From positions 1 to 8,067 of the IMG/VR virus record IMGVR_UViG_3300037059_000105: a stretch of DNA of 8,067 nt. The stretch is one strand, 5' to 3'. Both the position numbers and the translations under genes were made by a program. Positions 1-8,067 of this stretch are shown piece after piece; the first letter of the stretch is position 1, and every line of letters starts with the position of its first letter. The notes beneath the pieces are model-generated. The model saw nothing but the letters and a program-made list of their open reading frames with translations, did no database searches and was not told the DNA's origin. The stretch is from a virus.

Positions 1-64
<64 letters not shown>

Positions 65-70
65 AATTAG

Positions 71-108
71 GCAAAAAGCCCAATCACTCCGGTGGTTGGG
101 CTTTTTGC
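71..108. terminator. Intrinsic terminator after the first tRNA copy, bidirectional in form
   Basis: A perfect 13-bp stem pairs gcaaaaagcccaa (71-83) with ttgggctttttgc (96-108) around a 12-nt loop. The A-tract on the 5' side and T-tract (102-106) on the 3' side of the GC core fit the classic rho-independent architecture. Confidence 0.8.
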
Positions 109-152
109 CTTCTGGCCGCCAGCCCCCGTTTTGCCGCACTGCAAAATAATTC

Positions 153-181
153 TTGACTCGGGTGGAGTGGTCCTCTATTAT
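153..181 (+). promoter_or_regulatory. sigma70-type promoter for the second tRNA-fMet gene
   Basis: -35 TTGACT (153-158), a 17-nt spacer and -10 TATTAT (176-181). An A/T-rich UP-like stretch gcaaaataattc lies upstream (141-152). A GC-rich discriminator GGCG follows the -10, as in stable-RNA promoters. The mature tRNA 5' end lies 14 nt downstream. Confidence 0.7.
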
Positions 182-194
182 GGCGTTTCTCTGA

Positions 195-1820
<1,626 letters not shown>

Positions 1821-2032
1821 GGGATTCAGAGGATGGAATGATTCGGCCTTCTGCCAGCGCGTTCGCCACAATGCGTTCGGCCAGCAGCTGGATCAACTCG
1901 TCGCGGGCGGCAAGGCGCTCGGATTCGCGCATGTGATTCGGCAACATTATTTGCAGGATAGTCCAGTTGTTGGAGGGCCAAAAGCGGCCCGGTTTTAGTC
2001 GGAATGTATTACTCGAAACACCGTTTTTGGCG

Positions 2033-2076
2033 CTGGTCTGCGGGGAAAATTTGGTAACTTTTTGCCCGCAGACCAG
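2033..2076. repeat. Perfect inverted repeat CTGGTCTGCGGG-N20-CCCGCAGACCAG
   Basis: The arms at 2033-2044 and 2065-2076 are exact reverse complements. The 20-nt spacer gaaaatttggtaactttttg is AT-rich and can extend the stem (aaaa/tttt). The repeat sits 9 nt past the stop of the last operon gene and has no canonical U-tract in either direction. Confidence 0.75.
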
Positions 2077-2085
2077 GTGACAAGA

Positions 2086-2343
2086 TCAGTCAGCGCCCTT
2101 CTTGCTGACAATCGGCTGGGCCAGTTTTCCGGTGATACGGATGGGCCACATGGGTTCGTAGTCGGGGTTGATCGTGGTCATGATCCAGAAGGCCATGCCG
2201 AAGATCGCTTCAGATACCGGCATCAACCAACTCAGAGACCAGTGACGCGGATCAAGGCAAGGCCCTTCGGTGTTGATGTCGCCGATATAGACAGGGCACA
2301 GGCCGAACCAGCCCTTGTGCGTGAATGTGATGGGGGGCGTCAT
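2086..2343 (-). CDS. Small hypothetical protein, 85 aa, with one probable transmembrane segment
   Basis: ATG 2343 is preceded by GGAGGA with a 6-nt spacer and forms an ATGA overlap with the upstream gene. The hydrophobic stretch is WLMPVSEAIFGMAFWIMTTI. I do not recognise the family. Confidence 0.6.
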   Translation of the reverse strand: MTPPITFTHKGWFGLCPVYIGDINTEGPCLDPRHWSLSWLMPVSEAIFGMAFWIMTTINPDYEPMWPIRITGKLAQPIVSKKGAD

Positions 2344-2358
2344 GCGTTTTCCTCCAGC
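2338..2358. repeat. 21-nt junction repeat, copy A (cgtcatGcgttttcctccagc)
   Basis: It matches 2865-2885 at 20 of 21 positions. It spans the ATGA stop/start overlap plus the GGAGGA ribosome-binding site. Confidence 0.8.
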
Positions 2359-2870
2359 GGCTTCATGAATACGATCCAGTGGGTCAGGCCTTTCCTGCCA
2401 GTGGGGTGACCAAACAGGGGCCGCACGGGAGTCAGCTCGAGCACATCCCGAATCCGCACTTGATCCTCGGCCCACTTGAACACCAACACGCCGTCGCTGG
2501 CCAGCACGCGGAAGCACTCGGAAAACCCCTTGCGCAAGTCCTCGCGCCAGTCTTCTCCCAGCACCCCGTACTTGGCCCGCAGCCAGCTTTTCGGGCCGGC
2601 GTAGCGTAGATGCGGAGGGTCGAAAGCAACCAGCTTGAAGGCCCCGTCTGGATACGGCAGGGCCGTGAAGTCCATTAGCACGTCGGGCTCGATGCGCAGC
2701 GTCCGACCATCACACAGCGTGTGCTTCTCGCTACGGCAATCACCGAATACCGCGTCGGGGTTTTCCCGGTTGAACCACATCATTCGGCTTCCGCAGCACG
2801 GGTCCAGAATCCTGGCGGGCTTTTCATCCACCTGTTCGTTATGGACGATGGCGATGGGGTGCGTCGTCAT
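2340..2870 (-). CDS. Small SAM-dependent DNA amino-methyltransferase (N6-adenine or N4-cytosine type), 176 aa
   Basis: It has the SAM-binding motif I-like ILDPCCGS followed by the catalytic motif IV DPPH (2610-2621). The family is typical of small phage methyltransferases. GGAGGA lies 6 nt upstream of ATG 2870, and both gene ends form ATGA overlaps. Confidence 0.8.
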   Translation of the reverse strand: MTTHPIAIVHNEQVDEKPARILDPCCGSRMMWFNRENPDAVFGDCRSEKHTLCDGRTLRIEPDVLMDFTALPYPDGAFKLVAFDPPHLRYAGPKSWLRAKYGVLGEDWREDLRKGFSECFRVLASDGVLVFKWAEDQVRIRDVLELTPVRPLFGHPTGRKGLTHWIVFMKPLEENA

Positions 2871-2885
2871 ACGTTTTCCTCCAGC
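2865..2885. repeat. 21-nt junction repeat, copy B (cgtcatAcgttttcctccagc)
   Basis: It matches 2338-2358 at 20 of 21 positions. Looser similarity extends to 2851-2887 versus 2327-2360, with one codon indel. Confidence 0.8.
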
Positions 2886-3088
2886 ATTTCGCCTTGATGG
2901 TTGATCCACAGGCGGCACAGGCCGCCGGCGCGGATGGGGAACTGGTTCTCTTTGCACCAGGGCGGGATTTCCGCCACGGGGATGCTGTTGAGCAGTTCGC
3001 GGCGGCCGTCCTTGAAGTGGCGGCACGTCTTGCAGCGGGGCGTGTTGCCGTCGTATTCGACGGATTTGCGCTTGGTTTTCTGGTTCAT
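2867..3088 (-). CDS. Cys4 mini-protein, 73 aa, with a HiPIP-like cysteine pattern (putative Fe-S or metal binding)
   Basis: The pattern is C19-x2-C22 (RCKTCRHF) ... C44-x12-C57 (CKENQFPIRAGGLCRLW). The start is set at ATG 3088, 4 nt after the upstream stop. The track start 3109 would overlap the upstream gene and has no RBS. The SD is weak (GAG). Confidence 0.55.
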   Translation of the reverse strand: MNQKTKRKSVEYDGNTPRCKTCRHFKDGRRELLNSIPVAEIPPWCKENQFPIRAGGLCRLWINHQGEMLEENV

Positions 3089-3092
3089 GGCT

Positions 3093-4052
3093 TTACTCAC
3101 ACAGTCCATATTCAGAGGCGCATTCAGTGGAATTGTTTAGGTCCGTCAGCAGGCTGAATTGACGCCCGCCACGGCTTGTCCTGGCCCACTGAATGACGCT
3201 CTCGATCTTGTTGGCCTCGCACACGTGGCGGTCAGCATGGGACTCGTGCAGTCCCTTGTTGAAGAACGTCGAGAAGCCGCGCTTGCAGGCCTGGCCGACA
3301 AGCATCTCCCACCGGGACTTCTCTTCCAGGAGCTCAGGGAACCTGGCTTCGATCTGAGTTATCTCGGCCTTTCCGCAGTTGATGCAGGGCATGCAACCGA
3401 CGCGGCTCATTCCCTGCCGATAAAGTGGGTTCGGCTGGATTCCGCGCCTGGCGTGCTTTGCAAAAACGTCGTCAGCAGTCCAATCGACCAGCGGACGAAA
3501 CGCCCACATGCCGGGGTTCAGCCGCTCGATTTTTTTGGCATTGCGCCGGTTCTGGGACTCATCCCGGCGGACGCCCTGCCACGACAGCACCTGATGGCCG
3601 GCGTCAATCTGCTCAAGCTGAAACCCGACTGCCATGTTTCGCTTTAACTCCTCGGTGCAGAACTGAGCCTTACGGGACGGGAAGCGGCCCTTCCACAGGC
3701 AGAGATCAAGGAAGGGGTTTCCTGTCGGGTGCAGTACAGCCAGAGCGCGGCGCTTTGCCTTGTTGGTCCAGCGCAGCCGGCGTCCCCGCTTGTCGCGTCC
3801 AGTGCGCTGATCGGTAGCGATGAACCGGCGCTTGCTCGCGATCTCGTGCGAGAAGTCGGCCTTCAGCCGCGTGATGCTGATATCGAGGGCCTGTTCGAGG
3901 TAGGACAGGTACTCATAGACGGCCGGGTGTTCGTTGCCGGTGTCGCAGAAGATCGGCAGCAGGTGCTCTCGCGGGCAGTTCTCCAGGGCGATCAGCAGCA
4001 ACGCGGTGGAGTCCTTTCCTCCGGAGACGCTGATTACGTGTTTGATGGTCAT
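3093..4052 (-). CDS. PAPS-reductase-family PP-loop ATP pyrophosphatase-like protein, 319 aa
   Basis: The PP-loop SGGKDS lies at 4008-4025, close to the N-terminus. Other motifs are CTEELK, QGVRRDES, PLVDWT and NPLY. A cysteine cluster GCMPCINC sits at 3375-3395. AAGGTGG lies upstream of ATG 4052, which forms an ATGA overlap with the upstream gene. Confidence 0.9.
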   Translation of the reverse strand: MTIKHVISVSGGKDSTALLLIALENCPREHLLPIFCDTGNEHPAVYEYLSYLEQALDISITRLKADFSHEIASKRRFIATDQRTGRDKRGRRLRWTNKAKRRALAVLHPTGNPFLDLCLWKGRFPSRKAQFCTEELKRNMAVGFQLEQIDAGHQVLSWQGVRRDESQNRRNAKKIERLNPGMWAFRPLVDWTADDVFAKHARRGIQPNPLYRQGMSRVGCMPCINCGKAEITQIEARFPELLEEKSRWEMLVGQACKRGFSTFFNKGLHESHADRHVCEANKIESVIQWARTSRGGRQFSLLTDLNNSTECASEYGLCE

Positions 4053-4663
4053 GCCGCCACCTTTTTGAACTCGACAACCCACACCCACGGGTTGGCATCC
4101 CACGAGCCGGCGCCATTGATGGACTCCCACAGTTCGCGGTATGCCTCGGCTGCTGTTGGTTGAAGAGTGCACTTCCCGTCGTCTGGAAGATGCGTATATC
4201 CGTAGCACAGAGGCCACCCATCATCTGGACGAAAGATGTAGCGCTTGATTCCCTCTGCCAGTGCATCCGCCTCGCTGATGTCGTGCAGGCGTTCAACACG
4301 GACAGAGACGACTTCCAGTGAGATACGGCTTGCCCAGCGCGGCATGTGTATTGATGGGCGCCAGCGGTGTCCGTCGTAGGTGTGGCCAGGGTCAGCCCGA
4401 TAGTCAACGCGCCGGCATGACTCTGAATAGTCGGGGTGGTATCCCCACGTCTCACGTACCCAAAGCCGGTCCCCGGGCTGTCCGAAGCGGTTCAGCCGCA
4501 TGATCCGGCCGTCTGCCATCGCCTCTTCATCAATCTCCATGCTGTTGGTTTCACGATTCAGCCGAAGCGGGAGCGGCTTCACGATTCGCCGGGTCTGCGT
4601 CTTCTTCCCGTCAAGGATTGCCCGGACCATCGGTGCGCTGAAAAGGATGGGGCGTTCTTTCAT
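4049..4663 (-). CDS. ASCH-like (PUA-fold) phage protein, 204 aa
   Basis: The N-terminus MKERPILFSAPMVRAILDGKKTQTRR, then GDRLWVRETW, PSIHMPRWASRI, VRVERLHDISEADALAEG and NPWVWVVEF match my recollection of the widespread phage ASCH-domain family. GGGAGG lies 6 nt upstream of ATG 4663, and both gene ends form ATGA overlaps. Confidence 0.75.
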   Translation of the reverse strand: MKERPILFSAPMVRAILDGKKTQTRRIVKPLPLRLNRETNSMEIDEEAMADGRIMRLNRFGQPGDRLWVRETWGYHPDYSESCRRVDYRADPGHTYDGHRWRPSIHMPRWASRISLEVVSVRVERLHDISEADALAEGIKRYIFRPDDGWPLCYGYTHLPDDGKCTLQPTAAEAYRELWESINGAGSWDANPWVWVVEFKKVAA

Positions 4664-6465
4664 GCCACACCTCCCTGCGCCACGCTGATCGCCACGGCCA
4701 CCGGCTGCACCCAGATGGGCATGGCCGACAGGACGAAGGTTTCGCCGCTCCAAGTGAGCAGCAGGGTGGTGCCCATGACGTGGCCGATTCCTTCGGCGGC
4801 ATCCGGGGGCACGGCGTTGCCGATGCGTTCGCGCCAGTCGCTGTCCGACAGGCCTTCTAGCTCGAGGTATTCCTCGGGCTCTACCAGGCTTTGCAGGGCA
4901 GCAAGCTCAAGCGTGGTAAAGGGCCGGTGCCAGGTGCCGTCCTCGGCGACGATGATGCAGGTGCACTTCTCGTTGGCTGCAGGGATGCGGTGATCGGCGA
5001 CTGACCAAGGGCCGTTGTCGTGGCAGGCGGACGCGGAGACGGCGCCGCTTGAGCCTGCCCATGGCACTACGCCGTAGTGGCCGCCGGTAAGGTAGTGGTC
5101 GCCCTTCTCGCGGGCCATGCCGGGCCGGGGGTCAGCCACGGCGAAGGCGCCCTGTCCGGTGGTGCTGCCGCTGATCACAGTGCCGGCGGCGCCGTCGTAA
5201 GCGGTGACCATGTACTTGCCGAAGCTCGGGCCAGCCCGGCGAGGATCTGCTACGCATTGCCCCGTGCCGTGGGCGCTCGTGACGGCCATGGCTGCTTGAT
5301 CGATCCGGATGACGCGGAACTCATTGTTGTGCTTTGCGGGGCCGCCGTGGCGCGGGTCGGCCACGCTGTACTTGCCGCCGCCCGGCGCCGACTGGGCGGA
5401 CACGGCGCCCATGGGCTCGTCCATCTTCAGCACGCCGTATTGGCTGTATTCCGCGCCCTGGTAGCGCGGATCGGCAATCGAGAAGGAACCATTGGAGGGC
5501 GTCGATCTTCCGGCGACGGTGCCGGTGCTTTCGTCCCAGCGATTTACGCCCAGGTATCCGCCCCGGTACTCGGGCACGATGAGGTAATCGCGCAGTTGGC
5601 CGTCTTCGACGTGCAGGCGGTTGAGGCTGCGCCAGTCCTTACCGGCTTCGACAAATGCGAGGCGTACCCAGGTCTTCCACTGCAGCGCCGGCACGCGGTG
5701 CATCGGGCCGCCGGCAGGGTCGCCCGGCAGGGGCATGCGGTCGAGCACGGTGCCCACGGCCTGCAGGCGCTTCTGTTCGGGCTCGTAGAGGAAGGCGGGC
5801 ACCTTTTCCATGTGGCGGGCGACCATCAGGAAACGCTTGCGGCTCTGCGCCAGGCGGCCGATCTTTCCGCAATCGTGAGTGGTTTCGGCCACGGCGTAGC
5901 CGTACTGGCGGAGCAGGCTGACGATCTGGTCGAGTAGGTGCCGGCCGCGGGTCTGGATGCGGGGCACGTTCTCAAAGACGATCAGCTCGGGCGGCTCGGC
6001 CTGGAAGGCCTCGAGCATCAGCCAGATGCCGCGCAGCGTGAGGCGGTTGAGGGCCTGGTATTTGTCGGTGCGGCTCTTGTTCTCGGCCAGCAGTCCGGAG
6101 AAGCCCTTGCAGGGCGCCGACAGAAACACGATGTGGGGATACTCGCCGCCAGCAGCTGCGCGGATTTCCATCGTTCCGGCCTCGCGCCAAGAGGCGGGCG
6201 GCTCAACACCGTGGAAGGCCTTGAACTGGCTGCGGTCGAACAGATCGAGCACGGTGCCGCGGGTGCCGGTAAGGCGCTCGAAGTCACGGATGGCCGGCGC
6301 GTCGACGTCGATGCCACCGATGCAGCGGAACTTGCCGACCATGTTGCCCACGCGGGGCTGGGCCTTGTTGAAGCCCTTGGCGCCGCCGCCGAGTCCGCAG
6401 AAGAGGTGAAAGTGGCGGATTTCGCGGACGTCGTCGGGCGCCAGGGTGAAGTTATCGCGCTTCAT
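4660..6465 (-). CDS. DNA (cytosine-5) methyltransferase, 601 aa, with an expanded variable region
   Basis: The canonical motifs appear in canonical order. They are I FCGLGGG (6382-6402), IV PCKGFS (6097-6114), VI ENV (5965-5973), VIII QSRKRF, IX RPFTTLELAALQS and X GNAVPP (4804-4821). The start is taken at ATG 6465, which forms an ATGA overlap with the upstream gene, rather than at 6477. Confidence 0.93.
   Translation of the reverse strand: MKRDNFTLAPDDVREIRHFHLFCGLGGGAKGFNKAQPRVGNMVGKFRCIGGIDVDAPAIRDFERLTGTRGTVLDLFDRSQFKAFHGVEPPASWREAGTMEIRAAAGGEYPHIVFLSAPCKGFSGLLAENKSRTDKYQALNRLTLRGIWLMLEAFQAEPPELIVFENVPRIQTRGRHLLDQIVSLLRQYGYAVAETTHDCGKIGRLAQSRKRFLMVARHMEKVPAFLYEPEQKRLQAVGTVLDRMPLPGDPAGGPMHRVPALQWKTWVRLAFVEAGKDWRSLNRLHVEDGQLRDYLIVPEYRGGYLGVNRWDESTGTVAGRSTPSNGSFSIADPRYQGAEYSQYGVLKMDEPMGAVSAQSAPGGGKYSVADPRHGGPAKHNNEFRVIRIDQAAMAVTSAHGTGQCVADPRRAGPSFGKYMVTAYDGAAGTVISGSTTGQGAFAVADPRPGMAREKGDHYLTGGHYGVVPWAGSSGAVSASACHDNGPWSVADHRIPAANEKCTCIIVAEDGTWHRPFTTLELAALQSLVEPEEYLELEGLSDSDWRERIGNAVPPDAAEGIGHVMGTTLLLTWSGETFVLSAMPIWVQPVAVAISVAQGGVA
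4987..5559 (-). repeat. Five tandem degenerate ~32-aa coding repeats inside the C5 methyltransferase variable region
   Basis: R1 is 5464-5559 (GYLGVNRWDESTGTVAGRSTPSNGSFSIADPR) and R2 is 5350-5445 (SQYGVLKMDEPMGAVSAQSAPGGGKYSVADPR). R3 is 5239-5325 (NEFRVIRIDQAAMAVTSAHGTGQCVADPR) and R4 is 5125-5220 (GKYMVTAYDGAAGTVISGSTTGQGAFAVADPR). R5 is 4987-5082 (GHYGVVPWAGSSGAVSASACHDNGPWSVADHR). The repeat is clear at protein level and diverged at DNA level. Confidence 0.85.
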
Positions 6466-6806
6466 GCCACACCCCACTTCATCGGGCGCCGGGGGCTGTC
6501 CTGGCCGTGGCTGACGACTTCACCCAGGGCGGCGTAGGCCTTGAGCACGCGGATGCAGCAGGTGCTCGACAGGGCGGTGGCCTCGGCCACTTCATTGGTT
6601 GTCACGATGCGCTTGGCGCCGCGGACGAACTTGAGGATAGCGGCGGCAGCGCGGGTGCTGGTGGTGCGGTGGTGCGCGTTGATGTCGTCTTCGACGTCGG
6701 CATCGCGGGCCTTGGCGGTGTCGATCGCCCAGGCGGCGGCAGCAATGTCGGCATCGTCGCCGGTGAAGCGGCGGGCGCCGATGTTTTCGAGGTGAACGGT
6801 GATCAT
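6462..6806 (-). CDS. Small hypothetical protein, 114 aa, with a possible C-terminal winged-helix/HTH
   Basis: ATG 6806 has GGAG 8 nt upstream and lies 2 nt after the upstream stop. The segment RIVTTNEVAEATALSSTCCIRVLKAYAALGEV resembles a MarR-like recognition region. The stop overlaps the C5 methyltransferase start (ATGA). Confidence 0.6.
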   Translation of the reverse strand: MITVHLENIGARRFTGDDADIAAAAWAIDTAKARDADVEDDINAHHRTTSTRAAAAILKFVRGAKRIVTTNEVAEATALSSTCCIRVLKAYAALGEVVSHGQDSPRRPMKWGVA

Positions 6807-6808
6807 GT

Positions 6809-7033
6809 TCAGTGCTCCAGCAGTTTGAGGTGGGCGGCGTAGCCGCACACTTGGAGGTGGTAGTCGAGCAGGGCGAGGGCGTCGTGGAACTCGATGCGGG
6901 TGAGGTTTCCCCGGGCGATGTCGGCCAGCCACTTCTTGTGGCGGCCGCACTTCACCGATGCGGTTTCGAGGACGATTCCCTGGCTGCGGATGTTCAGCGC
7001 CACGCGCTGGAAATCGATGTGGATGGCGGGCAT
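6809..7033 (-). CDS. Small hypothetical protein, 74 aa, possibly an XRE-like HTH
   Basis: ATG 7033 has GAGG 8 nt upstream. The segment LNIRSQGIVLETASVKCGRHKKWLADIARGNLTRIEFHDALALLD loosely fits the XRE helix-turn-helix pattern. This is pattern recognition only. Confidence 0.5.
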   Translation of the reverse strand: MPAIHIDFQRVALNIRSQGIVLETASVKCGRHKKWLADIARGNLTRIEFHDALALLDYHLQVCGYAAHLKLLEH

Positions 7034-7043
7034 GGGTAAGGCC

Positions 7044-7517
7044 TCAATACGGGATTTCGCCTTCGGCGATGCCGCCCGGCTCGGCCGTGGGGGCGGTGAG
7101 CTGATCGAGGGCGTTCTCGCAGGCTTCCTCCGCGGTGTCGCCTCGGCCTTGGGCGAGGATCTTTCTGTCGGGGTCCTGTTCGCGGGCGTTGCTGCAGATC
7201 CACGCCATCCAGCCCGTGGTGCGGGTGTAGGCCAGTTCGAAGTAGGTGTAGGGGTTGGATTCGAGCAGCAGGGCGTGCATAGCGATGAGGGCGTCGATCG
7301 CGATGTCTTCGCGGGGCGACGGGTTCAGGGCTTCGCCCAGTTCGATCGCGTGGCGCAGATCGACGGTGGATTCCTGCAGCTCGACGAGGATATCGGCGGC
7401 CGTTTTGATCAATGGGGCGTCGCCGGCGGCGAGGGCTTGGTGGTTGTCGCCAAGCATGTTGTTCAGGGATTCGCTCGCCTCCAGCAGGCGGGCGGTGAGT
7501 TCAATAAGGGTTTTCAT
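7044..7517 (-). CDS. Acidic hypothetical protein, 157 aa
   Basis: ATG 7517 has GGAG 7 nt upstream and lies 14 nt after the HD gene stop. The sequence from MKTLIELTARLLE onward looks like a real protein. The Arg/Pro-rich upstream extension in the track ORF overlaps the HD gene in another frame. Confidence 0.65.
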   Translation of the reverse strand: MKTLIELTARLLEASESLNNMLGDNHQALAAGDAPLIKTAADILVELQESTVDLRHAIELGEALNPSPREDIAIDALIAMHALLLESNPYTYFELAYTRTTGWMAWICSNAREQDPDRKILAQGRGDTAEEACENALDQLTAPTAEPGGIAEGEIPY

Positions 7518-7531
7518 GGCGGGGCTCCGGG

Positions 7532-8067
7532 TTACAGGGAGAAGTAGGCGGTGCAGGCGTCGCAGTCGCACTGACGGCTGGGCGGGTGGCCAACGGGGGT
7601 GGTCAGGGCGTAGTACATGCAGAGGAAGTCGGCGCGGGCCTGGTTGGGCGTTTGCGGGCTGATGCGGATGGGCAGGGGCTCGATGCCGTCGAGTTGGACC
7701 CAGTGCTGGTCGGTGGCGGGCATGAGGTCGCGCTTTTCGGTGGCGAGCATGACCATGTCGGCGTGCTCGACTTCGGGGGCGAGGTTGAGCGGGACGGCGA
7801 AGTGGCCGCGGATGCGCTGGGCGATCTGGCGTTCGATGTCGCGGTAGGTGGGCACCAGCTGCTTGAGGGGCGTGGACACGTCGCCGATGTAGGCCTCGTG
7901 GGCGTCGTGCAGCAGGGCGGCCAGGGCGTGCTCGGGCGGCACGATGGTGGCGGCCATCACGCTGTGCTGGGCCACGCTGTAGAAGCTGCGGGTGTGGCCG
8001 TTGAAGCGGCACAGGTTGGACAGGGCGTGGGCAATGTCGAGGATGTCCACGTGGCAGCGGGTGGGAT
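7532..8067 (-). CDS. HD-domain metal-dependent phosphohydrolase (YfbR-like 5'-deoxynucleotidase type), 5' end probably beyond the window
   Basis: The motifs are DIAHALSNLCRFNGH, SVAQHS, LLHDAHEAYIGD (HD at 7904-7909) and ADMVMLATEKRDL. The frame stays open from GTG 8050 to the window edge (..PTRCH-VDILDIAH), and family members usually carry ~20 more N-terminal residues. The true start is therefore likely off-window. Confidence 0.8.
   Translation of the reverse strand, partial: PTRCHVDILDIAHALSNLCRFNGHTRSFYSVAQHSVMAATIVPPEHALAALLHDAHEAYIGDVSTPLKQLVPTYRDIERQIAQRIRGHFAVPLNLAPEVEHADMVMLATEKRDLMPATDQHWVQLDGIEPLPIRISPQTPNQARADFLCMYYALTTPVGHPPSRQCDCDACTAYFSL

Follow-up and report, generated by a model that had tools for sequence, protein, structure and literature searches.

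Background

Six consecutive genes chained by overlapping stop and start codons may be the parts of one biochemical machine, or they may be neighbours that share little more than an operon. This question is raised by the interval 2086-6465 of a stretch of viral DNA of 8,067 nucleotides (nt) (IMG/VR record IMGVR_UViG_3300037059_000105, positions 1 to 8,067; this whole stretch will be referred to as the window). An initial annotation, made from the sequence, regarded the interval as a candidate DNA-modification or anti-restriction system of six stoichiometrically expressed genes, possibly sulfur- or redox-dependent, which would protect the DNA of the element. According to our analysis, the six genes are probably a mosaic of independently exchangeable single-gene cassettes, that is, an accessory anti-restriction island and not one machine. 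Four independent lines of evidence argue against a single six-gene module: the gene losses in a sister prophage (L087), the neighbourhoods in which the PAPS-reductase-family gene is found elsewhere, the composition of other viral contigs that carry the smaller methylase, and the generic nature of the gene overlaps together with a contrast in base composition among the genes. All six open reading frames (ORFs) lie on the minus strand according to the ORF list of the window and are given from the upstream to the downstream end, with lengths in amino acids (aa):

4660..6465, minus strand: orphan C5-cytosine DNA methyltransferase (C5MT), 601 aa (PF00145, E 1.1e-16; phrog_116, E 6.7e-53)
4049..4663, minus strand: protein with a predicted ASCH/PUA-like fold, phage P1 PmgT family, 204 aa (phrog_874, E 8.5e-76)
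3093..4052, minus strand: stand-alone phage-type PAPS-reductase-family PP-loop enzyme (PAPSr), phrog_424, 319 aa (PF01507, E 1.3e-25; phrog_424, E 8e-65)
2867..3088, minus strand: Cys4 mini-protein, plausibly HiPIP-like, 73 aa, without signal peptide (family profile, AlphaFold2 (AF2) model, Foldseek)
2340..2870, minus strand: small orphan amino-methyltransferase (DPPH methylase), 176 aa (phrog_954, E 1.7e-73; PADLOC MTase_II, E 1.8e-68, and orphan MTase, 7.1e-49)
2086..2343, minus strand: small protein, phrog_6519, borderline hydrophobic, 85 aa (phrog_6519, E 2.1e-20)

Layout and packing of the operon

The chain itself is as it was first described. Read on the minus strand, ATGA stop/start overlaps are located at 6462-6465, 4660-4663, 4049-4052, 2867-2870 and 2340-2343, while the PAPSr and Cys4 genes are separated by a gap of 4 nt (3089-3092); the whole minus-strand operon spans from 8050 down to 2086, beyond the integrase ORF. 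Contiguity and overlaps of this kind would favour the view that all six genes form one coupled pathway for a novel sulfur- or redox-dependent modification, in which PAPSr adenylates a substrate and transfers sulfur, the HiPIP-like protein donates electrons and the ASCH-like protein recognises the base. The intact PP-loop of PAPSr and folds that are compatible with the proposed roles likewise speak for such a pathway.

A chain of tight ATGA overlaps in the early operon of a prophage does not, however, testify to a functional module. In the early operon of a related prophage (L084), 4-nt overlaps join functionally unrelated genes at 11 of 14 successive same-strand junctions, and unrelated genes are joined in the same manner in L087. 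The overlaps are thus generic, being the default packing in these prophage early operons. Furthermore, the G+C content at third codon positions (GC3) is heterogeneous, amounting to 0.84 in C5MT, 0.67 in the ASCH-like gene, 0.77 in PAPSr, 0.84 in Cys4 and 0.77 in both the DPPH methylase gene and the small ORF; this contrast among adjacent genes is consistent with different origins.

A sister prophage without two of the genes

The sister element L087 shares 93-97% nucleotide identity with the window over orf74, the winged helix-turn-helix (wHTH)-like gene upstream of C5MT, C5MT itself, the ASCH-like gene, Cys4, the small ORF and the integrase gene, and is devoid of exactly two genes, PAPSr (964 nt) and the DPPH methylase gene (527 nt). 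At the first of these sites, where PAPSr is missing, the stop of the ASCH-like gene directly overlaps the start of Cys4 (…GGCGGCATGAACCAG…), with GCATGA as the junction. At the second site L087 possesses a junction repeat once, of which the window has two copies around the DPPH methylase gene. This repeat and a second family of junction repeats are positioned in the window as follows (no strand assigned):

2338..2358: junction direct repeat CGTCATGCGTTTTCCTCCAGC, ribosome-binding site (RBS) plus ATGA, downstream copy (repeat family D12)
2865..2885: same junction repeat, upstream copy (repeat family D12)
4659..4676: junction repeat TTCATGCCACACCTCCCT at the C5MT/ASCH boundary (repeat family D16)
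6461..6478: partner junction repeat at the wHTH/C5MT boundary (repeat family D16)

The D12 copies, of the form CTGGAGGAAAACG[T/C]ATGACG, are 21 nt long, identical at 20 of the 21 positions and spaced by 527 nt, and they flank the DPPH methylase gene. Those of D16, with 16 of 18 positions identical and a spacing of 1802 nt, enclose the C5MT gene in the same register to ATGA. Such repeats suggest gain and loss of cassettes by homology at the junctions. Since L087 keeps the ASCH-like and Cys4 genes without PAPSr, both persist without the PP-loop enzyme, which is difficult to reconcile with the six-gene pathway. The small ORF of L087, in turn, shows an internal deletion of ~98 nt (window 2142-2239 versus L087 10921-10934), has a called product of 47 aa and is apparently shifted in frame, as its two tblastn pieces lie in different frames; this suggests that the 85-aa gene is dispensable.

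The window and L087 therewith constitute a near-identical natural pair that differs by the presence of PAPSr and of the small methylase, and provide a clean genetic start for work on PAPSr function. Of all by-products of the analysis, this presence/absence pair is, together with the junction repeats, the most useful.

Neighbourhoods of the gene families in other genomes

By means of tblastn and profile searches, 80 genomic loci with PAPSr orthologues at 43-66% identity were surveyed. Within 8 kb of PAPSr, ASCH-like genes were found at 8-9 of these loci, the DPPH methylase at 4-5 and the small ORF at one, while neither Cys4 nor the C5MT family of the window occurred at any of the 80. In the three closest PAPSr orthologues with contigs examined (76-89% identity) the gene is situated between small early genes and replication/recombination or RusA genes, and no methylase or ASCH neighbours were present on the same three contigs. 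The reverse census of 80 viral contigs with the DPPH methylase revealed the C5MT family in 8, ASCH in 9 and PAPSr in 5, and Cys4 and the small ORF in none of the 80.

Where several of the families do meet, their order differs: HD-C5MT-DPPH..PAPSr in L116 (HD being a phosphatase-like gene discussed below), C5MT-DPPH-ASCH in L122, C5MT-ASCH..DPPH in L132, and ASCH-DPPH-PAPSr in L162 and L168. Such shuffled orders mark the genes as accessory cassettes from a common pool and not as parts of a fixed pathway. The initial annotation had itself staked its module on the co-occurrence of the genes in other genomes, and this co-occurrence is largely lacking. Given the losses in L087, the near-complete absence of Cys4 (0 of 160 PAPSr or DPPH-methylase loci) and of the small ORF beside PAPSr elsewhere, the shuffled orders, the generic ATGA packing and the heterogeneous GC3, the claim of a stoichiometric, co-evolved six-gene system is not supported, and a single sulfur- or redox-dependent pathway made up of all six products is very improbable.

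The PAPS-reductase-family enzyme

PAPSr belongs to the phage PAPS-reductase family (PHROG 424 / Pfam PAPS_reduct), as first read from the sequence: its PF01507 score is 90.9 bits (cut-off 22.5), the phrog_424 match extends over residues 3-318, and the PP-loop SGGKDS at residue 10 is intact and invariant across the family. The CxxCxxC motif that had been pointed out is present (C220, C223, C226; 3375-3395), yet its third cysteine, C226, is not conserved. In the family alignment Cys 36, 118, 220, 223 and 311 show no variation, and C132 and C318 hardly any, which makes the conserved cysteines candidate cluster-binding or catalytic residues. Matches to PAPSr occur in 149 phage records, and the close relatives retrieved number more than 6,700; on record ever since phage 186 and phiE125, the family is very common in phages.

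The metabolic alternative, namely that PAPSr is a CysH-like auxiliary metabolic gene through which the lysogen gains capacity for assimilatory sulfate reduction and which has no relation to DNA, has been proposed for morons of Burkholderia prophages (PMC2920897). PHROG files phrog_424 among the auxiliary metabolic genes, and CysH PAPS reductases are the best sequence matches of PAPSr among solved structures, although the similarity is limited to residues ~155-240. The scores against curated CysH models remain far under their cut-offs (NF002537, 64.6 versus 154 bits; TIGR02057, 30.5 versus 254 bits), so that PAPSr does not qualify as a CysH protein. Whereas the catalytic motif of CysH is a C-terminal ECGLH, PAPSr ends in ...ECASEYGLCE, with YGLCE in the corresponding place. 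An ATP-pyrophosphatase loop, SGGKDS, is invariant in the family, SspD is the best match in a library of defence models, and the gene is located in an early replication/anti-restriction operon. We reject CysH-type sulfate assimilation on the curated-model scores, the short similarity, the C terminus, the SGGKDS loop and the SspD match, and regard it as highly improbable.

The defence library in question, PADLOC, returned SspD (5.6e-27), BrxP (5.4e-16) and DndC (1.4e-7); the SspD match, for which no curated cut-off exists, falls into two stretches, the best of which comprises residues 4-80 of 319. Assignment to the DndC type proper fails, as TIGR03183 is matched with 28.8 bits against a cut-off of 290.4 and over residues 125-198 only. 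Like DndC, SspD and BrxP, PAPSr has a PAPS_reduct fold, a PP-loop and a conserved CxxC. Unlike in the systems of these proteins, neither a DndD/SspC/BrxC ATPase nor DndE/SspB nor a cysteine desulfurase is encoded near it. Neither a DndD-type ATPase nor DndE was matched among the 10 products of the operon or in the genes upstream in L087, and no match to the SspC ATPase or to the nickase/DNA-binding partner SspB was obtained in the window with Pfam and PADLOC. Judged from its sequence, PAPSr is an intact PP-loop enzyme of what appears to be an SspD/BrxP/DndC-like branch, nearer to these proteins than to CysH, without the usual partners in the window.

DNA phosphorothioation requires a protein with a PAPS-reductase domain, a P-loop NTPase and a DNA-recognition component (PMC12914056, PMC12707154). 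The P-loop ATPase and the DNA-recognition subunit were not found in the window, which argues against the sulfur-dependent modification that the initial annotation had considered. A version of this idea would nevertheless let the PHROG 424 enzyme, alone or together with Dnd/Ssp partners of the host, and possibly with the HiPIP-like Cys4 protein of the cytoplasm as redox partner, install or erase a sulfur mark on DNA and so defeat restriction that senses phosphorothioates. We consider this quite improbable. If true, installation or removal of a sulfur mark by PAPSr would be a new enzymatic mechanism of anti-defence, with the window and L087 as natural on/off variants.

The two methylases

The C5-cytosine methyltransferase is confirmed, with 61.6 bits against PF00145 (cut-off 22) and all six motifs that were sought in canonical order (numbers give the residue): I FCGLGG-22, IV PCK-118, VI ENV-165, VIII QSRKR-207, IX RPFTTLELAALQ-514 and X GNAVP-549. 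Five tandem units of ~38 aa, each with an xxAD[PH]R end, lie between motifs VIII and IX at residues ~331-493 (window 4990-5475), in agreement with the multiplied target-recognition region that was described at the outset. This array looks like a series of target-recognition domain (TRD)-like modules, and by this architecture the enzyme is probably multispecific, with several cytosine contexts as its targets. The family was matched in 45 phage records, and full-length homologues with ~57-64% identity occur in the Pseudomonas phages LKA5, H66, Dobby and PP9W, in Marinobacter phage PS3 and in Achromobacter phage CF418P1. Among the homologues the number of units ranges from 4 to 6 (4 in Marinobacter PS3, 5 in the window, 6 in Dobby), as would be expected if recognition units were gained and lost as modules.

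Multispecific C5 methyltransferases are known from the Bacillus phages SPR, phi3T and rho11s. The enzyme of the window resembles these in being an orphan phage C5 methylase with short tandem units of TRD size between motifs VIII and IX. It differs from them in its proteobacterial host and in that its units are recognisable repeats (xxADPR), of which there are 4 to 6 per protein.

The smaller enzyme is the DPPH amino-methyltransferase that had been proposed, given its phrog_954 and PADLOC matches, a motif I DPCCGS and the motif IV DPPH at residue 84. Its matches occur in 252 phage records from hosts of many phyla, from Firmicutes to Proteobacteria, while a sequence search of the PDB with this protein yielded nothing useful.

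That no restriction partner accompanies the methylases, and that both are orphans, has been borne out. Among the 10 operon products no nuclease, ATPase or cysteine desulfurase domain was detected with Pfam, curated models and PADLOC, no cognate endonuclease was found beside the methylases among the operon products of the window (Pfam, PHROG, PADLOC), and both enzymes match orphan-methylase models of PADLOC. These results also bear on the idea that the cluster is a prophage defence, which excludes superinfecting phages in a modification-dependent manner rather than protecting the phage itself. P2-like prophages do possess defence hotspots (PMC9122126), and the PADLOC models DruM, DrmMII, BrxP and SspD match individual proteins of the cluster. 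These matches are, however, the generic ones to methylases and PAPS domains, and neither the window nor the L087 neighbourhood contains a nuclease, ATPase, PglZ or other effector. A defence system is rejected on both counts, and we hold this explanation to be extremely unlikely.

PAPSr beside methylases in other phages

The link between phage methylases and PAPS-reductase-like genes, mentioned in the initial annotation, is real. Ronning et al. (2010, PMC2920897) reported a moron consisting of a methylase, a PAPS reductase and a partition factor from a hotspot of insertion in Burkholderia prophages; methylase plus PAPS-reductase morons of Burkholderia phages have been on record since 2002-2010. 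The order methylase-PAPSr-ParB is found in phiE125 (gp56-gp57), methylase-PAPSr-methylase in Agrobacterium phage Rivra, C5MT, PAPSr, AlpA and integrase in Acidovorax phage Acica (gp45-46), and a primase followed by C5MT, PAPSr, excisionase and integrase in Pseudomonas phage Dobby (gp45-46). In Acica and Dobby, which are likewise Peduoviridae, these genes occupy the genomic position that they have in the window. Apart from Cys4, each of the six families already carries an annotation and is widely distributed among phages. Furthermore, PAPS reductases have been noted in Aca-regulated anti-defence operons (2026 paper, PMC13551039), and in a Vibrio phage studied by Piel et al. a pair of phage-specific genes, including a PAPS-Dam fusion, conferred escape from Dnd (bioRxiv 10.1101/2021.05.05.442762).

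The locus of the window shares with the morons of phiE125, phi644-2, Acica and Dobby and with Orf84 of phage 186 the same PAPS-reductase family (PHROG 424, 44-64% identity), a position in an early operon near an integrase or insertion hotspot, and a PAPSr that frequently follows an orphan methylase without a gene in between; Dobby even has the same family of multi-repeat C5 methylases. In contrast to these morons, the window has an ASCH-like gene between C5MT and PAPSr and thereafter the HiPIP-like gene and a second methylase, whereas phiE125 carries a ParB-like gene instead of these extra genes. The PAPS-Dam locus of the Vibrio crassostreae phage is similar in combining a PAPS-reductase domain with an amino-methyltransferase among exchangeable anti-restriction genes. 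There, however, both are fused into a single polypeptide with a methylase of the Dam (PF05869) type, while the genes of the window are separate and the methylase is of another family.

The parallel raises an intermediate explanation, in which PAPSr and one adjacent methylase form a counter-defence pair against the phosphorothioate-dependent restriction of Dnd/Ssp, equivalent to the Vibrio fusion, and the other genes are bystanders. Anti-Dnd activity of the PAPS-Dam fusion together with a neighbour gene (bioRxiv 10.1101/2021.05.05.442762), the adjacency of PAPSr and methylases in phiE125, Acica, Rivra and Dobby, the DPPH methylase genes that abut PAPSr in L032, L162 and L168, and the joint absence of PAPSr and DPPH methylase from L087 all agree with such a pair. 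In a Pfam census of the flanks, DNA methylases of any family made up 15 of 152 ORFs adjacent to PAPSr (9.9%), compared with 3-7 of 128 control ORFs 3 kb away (2.3-5.5%); the ORFs were picked crudely (longest, GC3-weighted), and the control count is a range since the top 25 Pfam families were listed. The enrichment beside PAPSr is accordingly between 1.9-fold and 4.6-fold (p 0.19 to 0.013), i.e. modest and statistically not robust. Moreover, ~80-90% of the PAPSr loci, the three closest examined orthologues included, are without an adjacent methylase, the family of the partner varies (C5, N6_N4, D12, Dam, DPPH), and in the window the Cys4 gene separates PAPSr from the DPPH methylase gene. The association with methylases is real in some lineages but facultative, and a dedicated pair appears unlikely as an account of the window.

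The three accessory proteins

The remaining three products have in common that Pfam, at E up to 10, gave no match to them. For the ASCH-like protein this includes the ASCH model, and a PDB sequence search with it was of no use. Its AF2 model, computed from an alignment with 40 homologues, reached a pLDDT of 87.7, and the top Foldseek matches were the N4-acetylcytidine (ac4C) amidohydrolase YqfB (E 6.7e-4, target-normalised TM 0.73), PH0355, 3s9x, 1t62 and ZmASCH (prob 0.94-1.0). On this model the earlier ASCH/PUA call is correct at the level of the predicted fold, to which structure prediction and Foldseek, but no Pfam match, have contributed. Sequences annotated as PmgT in phage P1 and Pseudomonas phages are 41-43% identical to the protein; the family is matched in 359 phage records and comprises at least 8000 homologues, with no Pfam assignment among the matches listed. 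Like phage P1 PmgT and the ASCH superfamily (YqfB, PH0355), the protein is predicted to have an ASCH beta-barrel and an N-terminal motif of the GxKTxTxR type. Unlike minimal ASCH domains, it is about twice their size through insertions and has no Pfam ASCH match.

For the Cys4 protein no match was obtained in Pfam (E up to 10), PHROGs, NCBIfam or PADLOC, nor by tblastn against phage records. While a word-indexed homologue search retrieved one relative only, an exhaustive HMMER search, which was used instead, gave 96 representatives with four invariant cysteines and the consensus PRCxTCxHF...C..H.F.V...G.CD.W. The profile of this family has the HiPIP PioC as its best match among all PDB sequences (E 0.004), and the AF2 model (pLDDT 91) has a sole credible Foldseek match, the HiPIP 1isu (prob 0.90, TM 0.45-0.53). 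The Pfam HiPIP model was not matched by the protein itself, and one family member reached HPIP_like weakly, with E 0.058. A remote relationship to HiPIPs is therefore plausible from profile and predicted structure, and the initial HiPIP-like assignment can tentatively be retained. Periplasmic export by a Tat leader is not indicated, since the N terminus MNQKTKRKSVEYD is without a hydrophobic segment (Kyte-Doolittle maximum 0.01). As a side observation, the Cys4 domain occurs in tandem in the proteins P0242 and P0250, with 13 matches in a protein of 2711 aa and 5 in one of 414 aa.

The 85-aa protein had been described as a small membrane protein. It is small and borderline hydrophobic, but the membrane call is weak, as the best 19-aa Kyte-Doolittle window amounts to 1.46; Pfam gave no match at E up to 10.

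How the island may act

Taken as an anti-restriction island, the six genes would be transcribed in one message with the whole operon upon infection or induction. The C5 methylase would mark cytosines in several sequence contexts by means of its five TRD-like repeats, the small DPPH methylase would place N6-adenine or N4-cytosine marks at another motif, and both together could shield the phage DNA and pre-empt restriction by the host. PAPSr would most likely act on, or interfere with, that part of the host's DNA modification and restriction which involves sulfur (phosphorothioate). Because none are encoded in the window, it would need partners from the host, which it might borrow to mark phage DNA or else titrate. 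The ASCH-like protein of the PmgT family, the HiPIP-like Cys4 protein and the 85-aa protein would be separate accessory genes that act separately, the first of them perhaps by binding modified nucleic acid. Turnover of the cassettes may proceed via recombination at the short conserved RBS-ATGA junction sequences. Protection of element DNA, as originally suggested, is plausible. One phage locus with a PAPS domain has genetic anti-Dnd activity (bioRxiv 10.1101/2021.05.05.442762).

Several points weigh against this picture. The anti-phosphorothioate role of phrog_424 is an extrapolation from one genetic experiment with a fused and distantly related protein, and the multispecificity of the C5 methylase is deduced from its repeat architecture only. 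PAPSr and the DPPH methylase are both absent from one and the same sister element, which might reflect the loss of a functional pair and not two events. Finally, the HD, C5MT, DPPH methylase, ASCH and PAPSr families co-occur in other viral contigs above their overall frequency in the phage collection, so that some functional relationship may exist within a loose guild of these families; the excess is confounded by phage lineage and redundant contigs.

Prophage context and flanking genes

The upstream genes of L087 comprise Ogr/Delta, CII (CP76) and a Toprim primase, by which it is a P2-like prophage. The interval in the window probably represents, as part of the same cassette picture, the integrase-proximal accessory end of a P2-like (Peduoviridae-type) early operon that is inserted beside tRNA-Met. 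Outside the six genes the following features were recognised:

7532..8050, minus strand: HD-domain YfbR-like deoxynucleoside monophosphate (dNMP) phosphatase at the head of the operon (phrog_318, E 7.6e-65; PF12917, E 2.3e-5)
6462..6806, minus strand: weakly wHTH-like small protein, 114 aa, whose gene is overlapped via ATGA by the start of the C5 methylase (HTH_27, E 0.036 only)
228..1871, minus strand: large serine recombinase (integrase), from ORF and translation, its identity being read from the N-terminal sequence with no domain search made
195..271, plus strand: tRNA-Met gene (CAT), likely flank of the attachment site (ARAGORN)

The wHTH-like protein is 84% identical in amino acids to its L087 counterpart, and the integrase ORF is 100% identical to the L087 fragment. 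The HD protein scores 24.6 bits against PF12917, just under the curated cut-off of 25.9 bits. Its homologues were observed near PAPSr, C5MT or the DPPH methylase in L014, L029, L035 and L116, with an upstream position in several loci, and it looks as if the phosphatase belonged to the same pool of accessory genes.

In a megablast comparison of the whole window with phage records nothing matched except tRNA-Met. The serine recombinase marks the end of the prophage. A second, partial copy of the tRNA-Met gene is located at 1-66, where it is cut by the edge of the window, and matches 208-273 with 98% identity over the overlap; the two copies lie 207 nt apart, with a terminator-like hairpin between them. 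The end of the serine-recombinase ORF falls within the second tRNA-Met, and it is unusual for a large serine integrase to be paired with a tRNA site.

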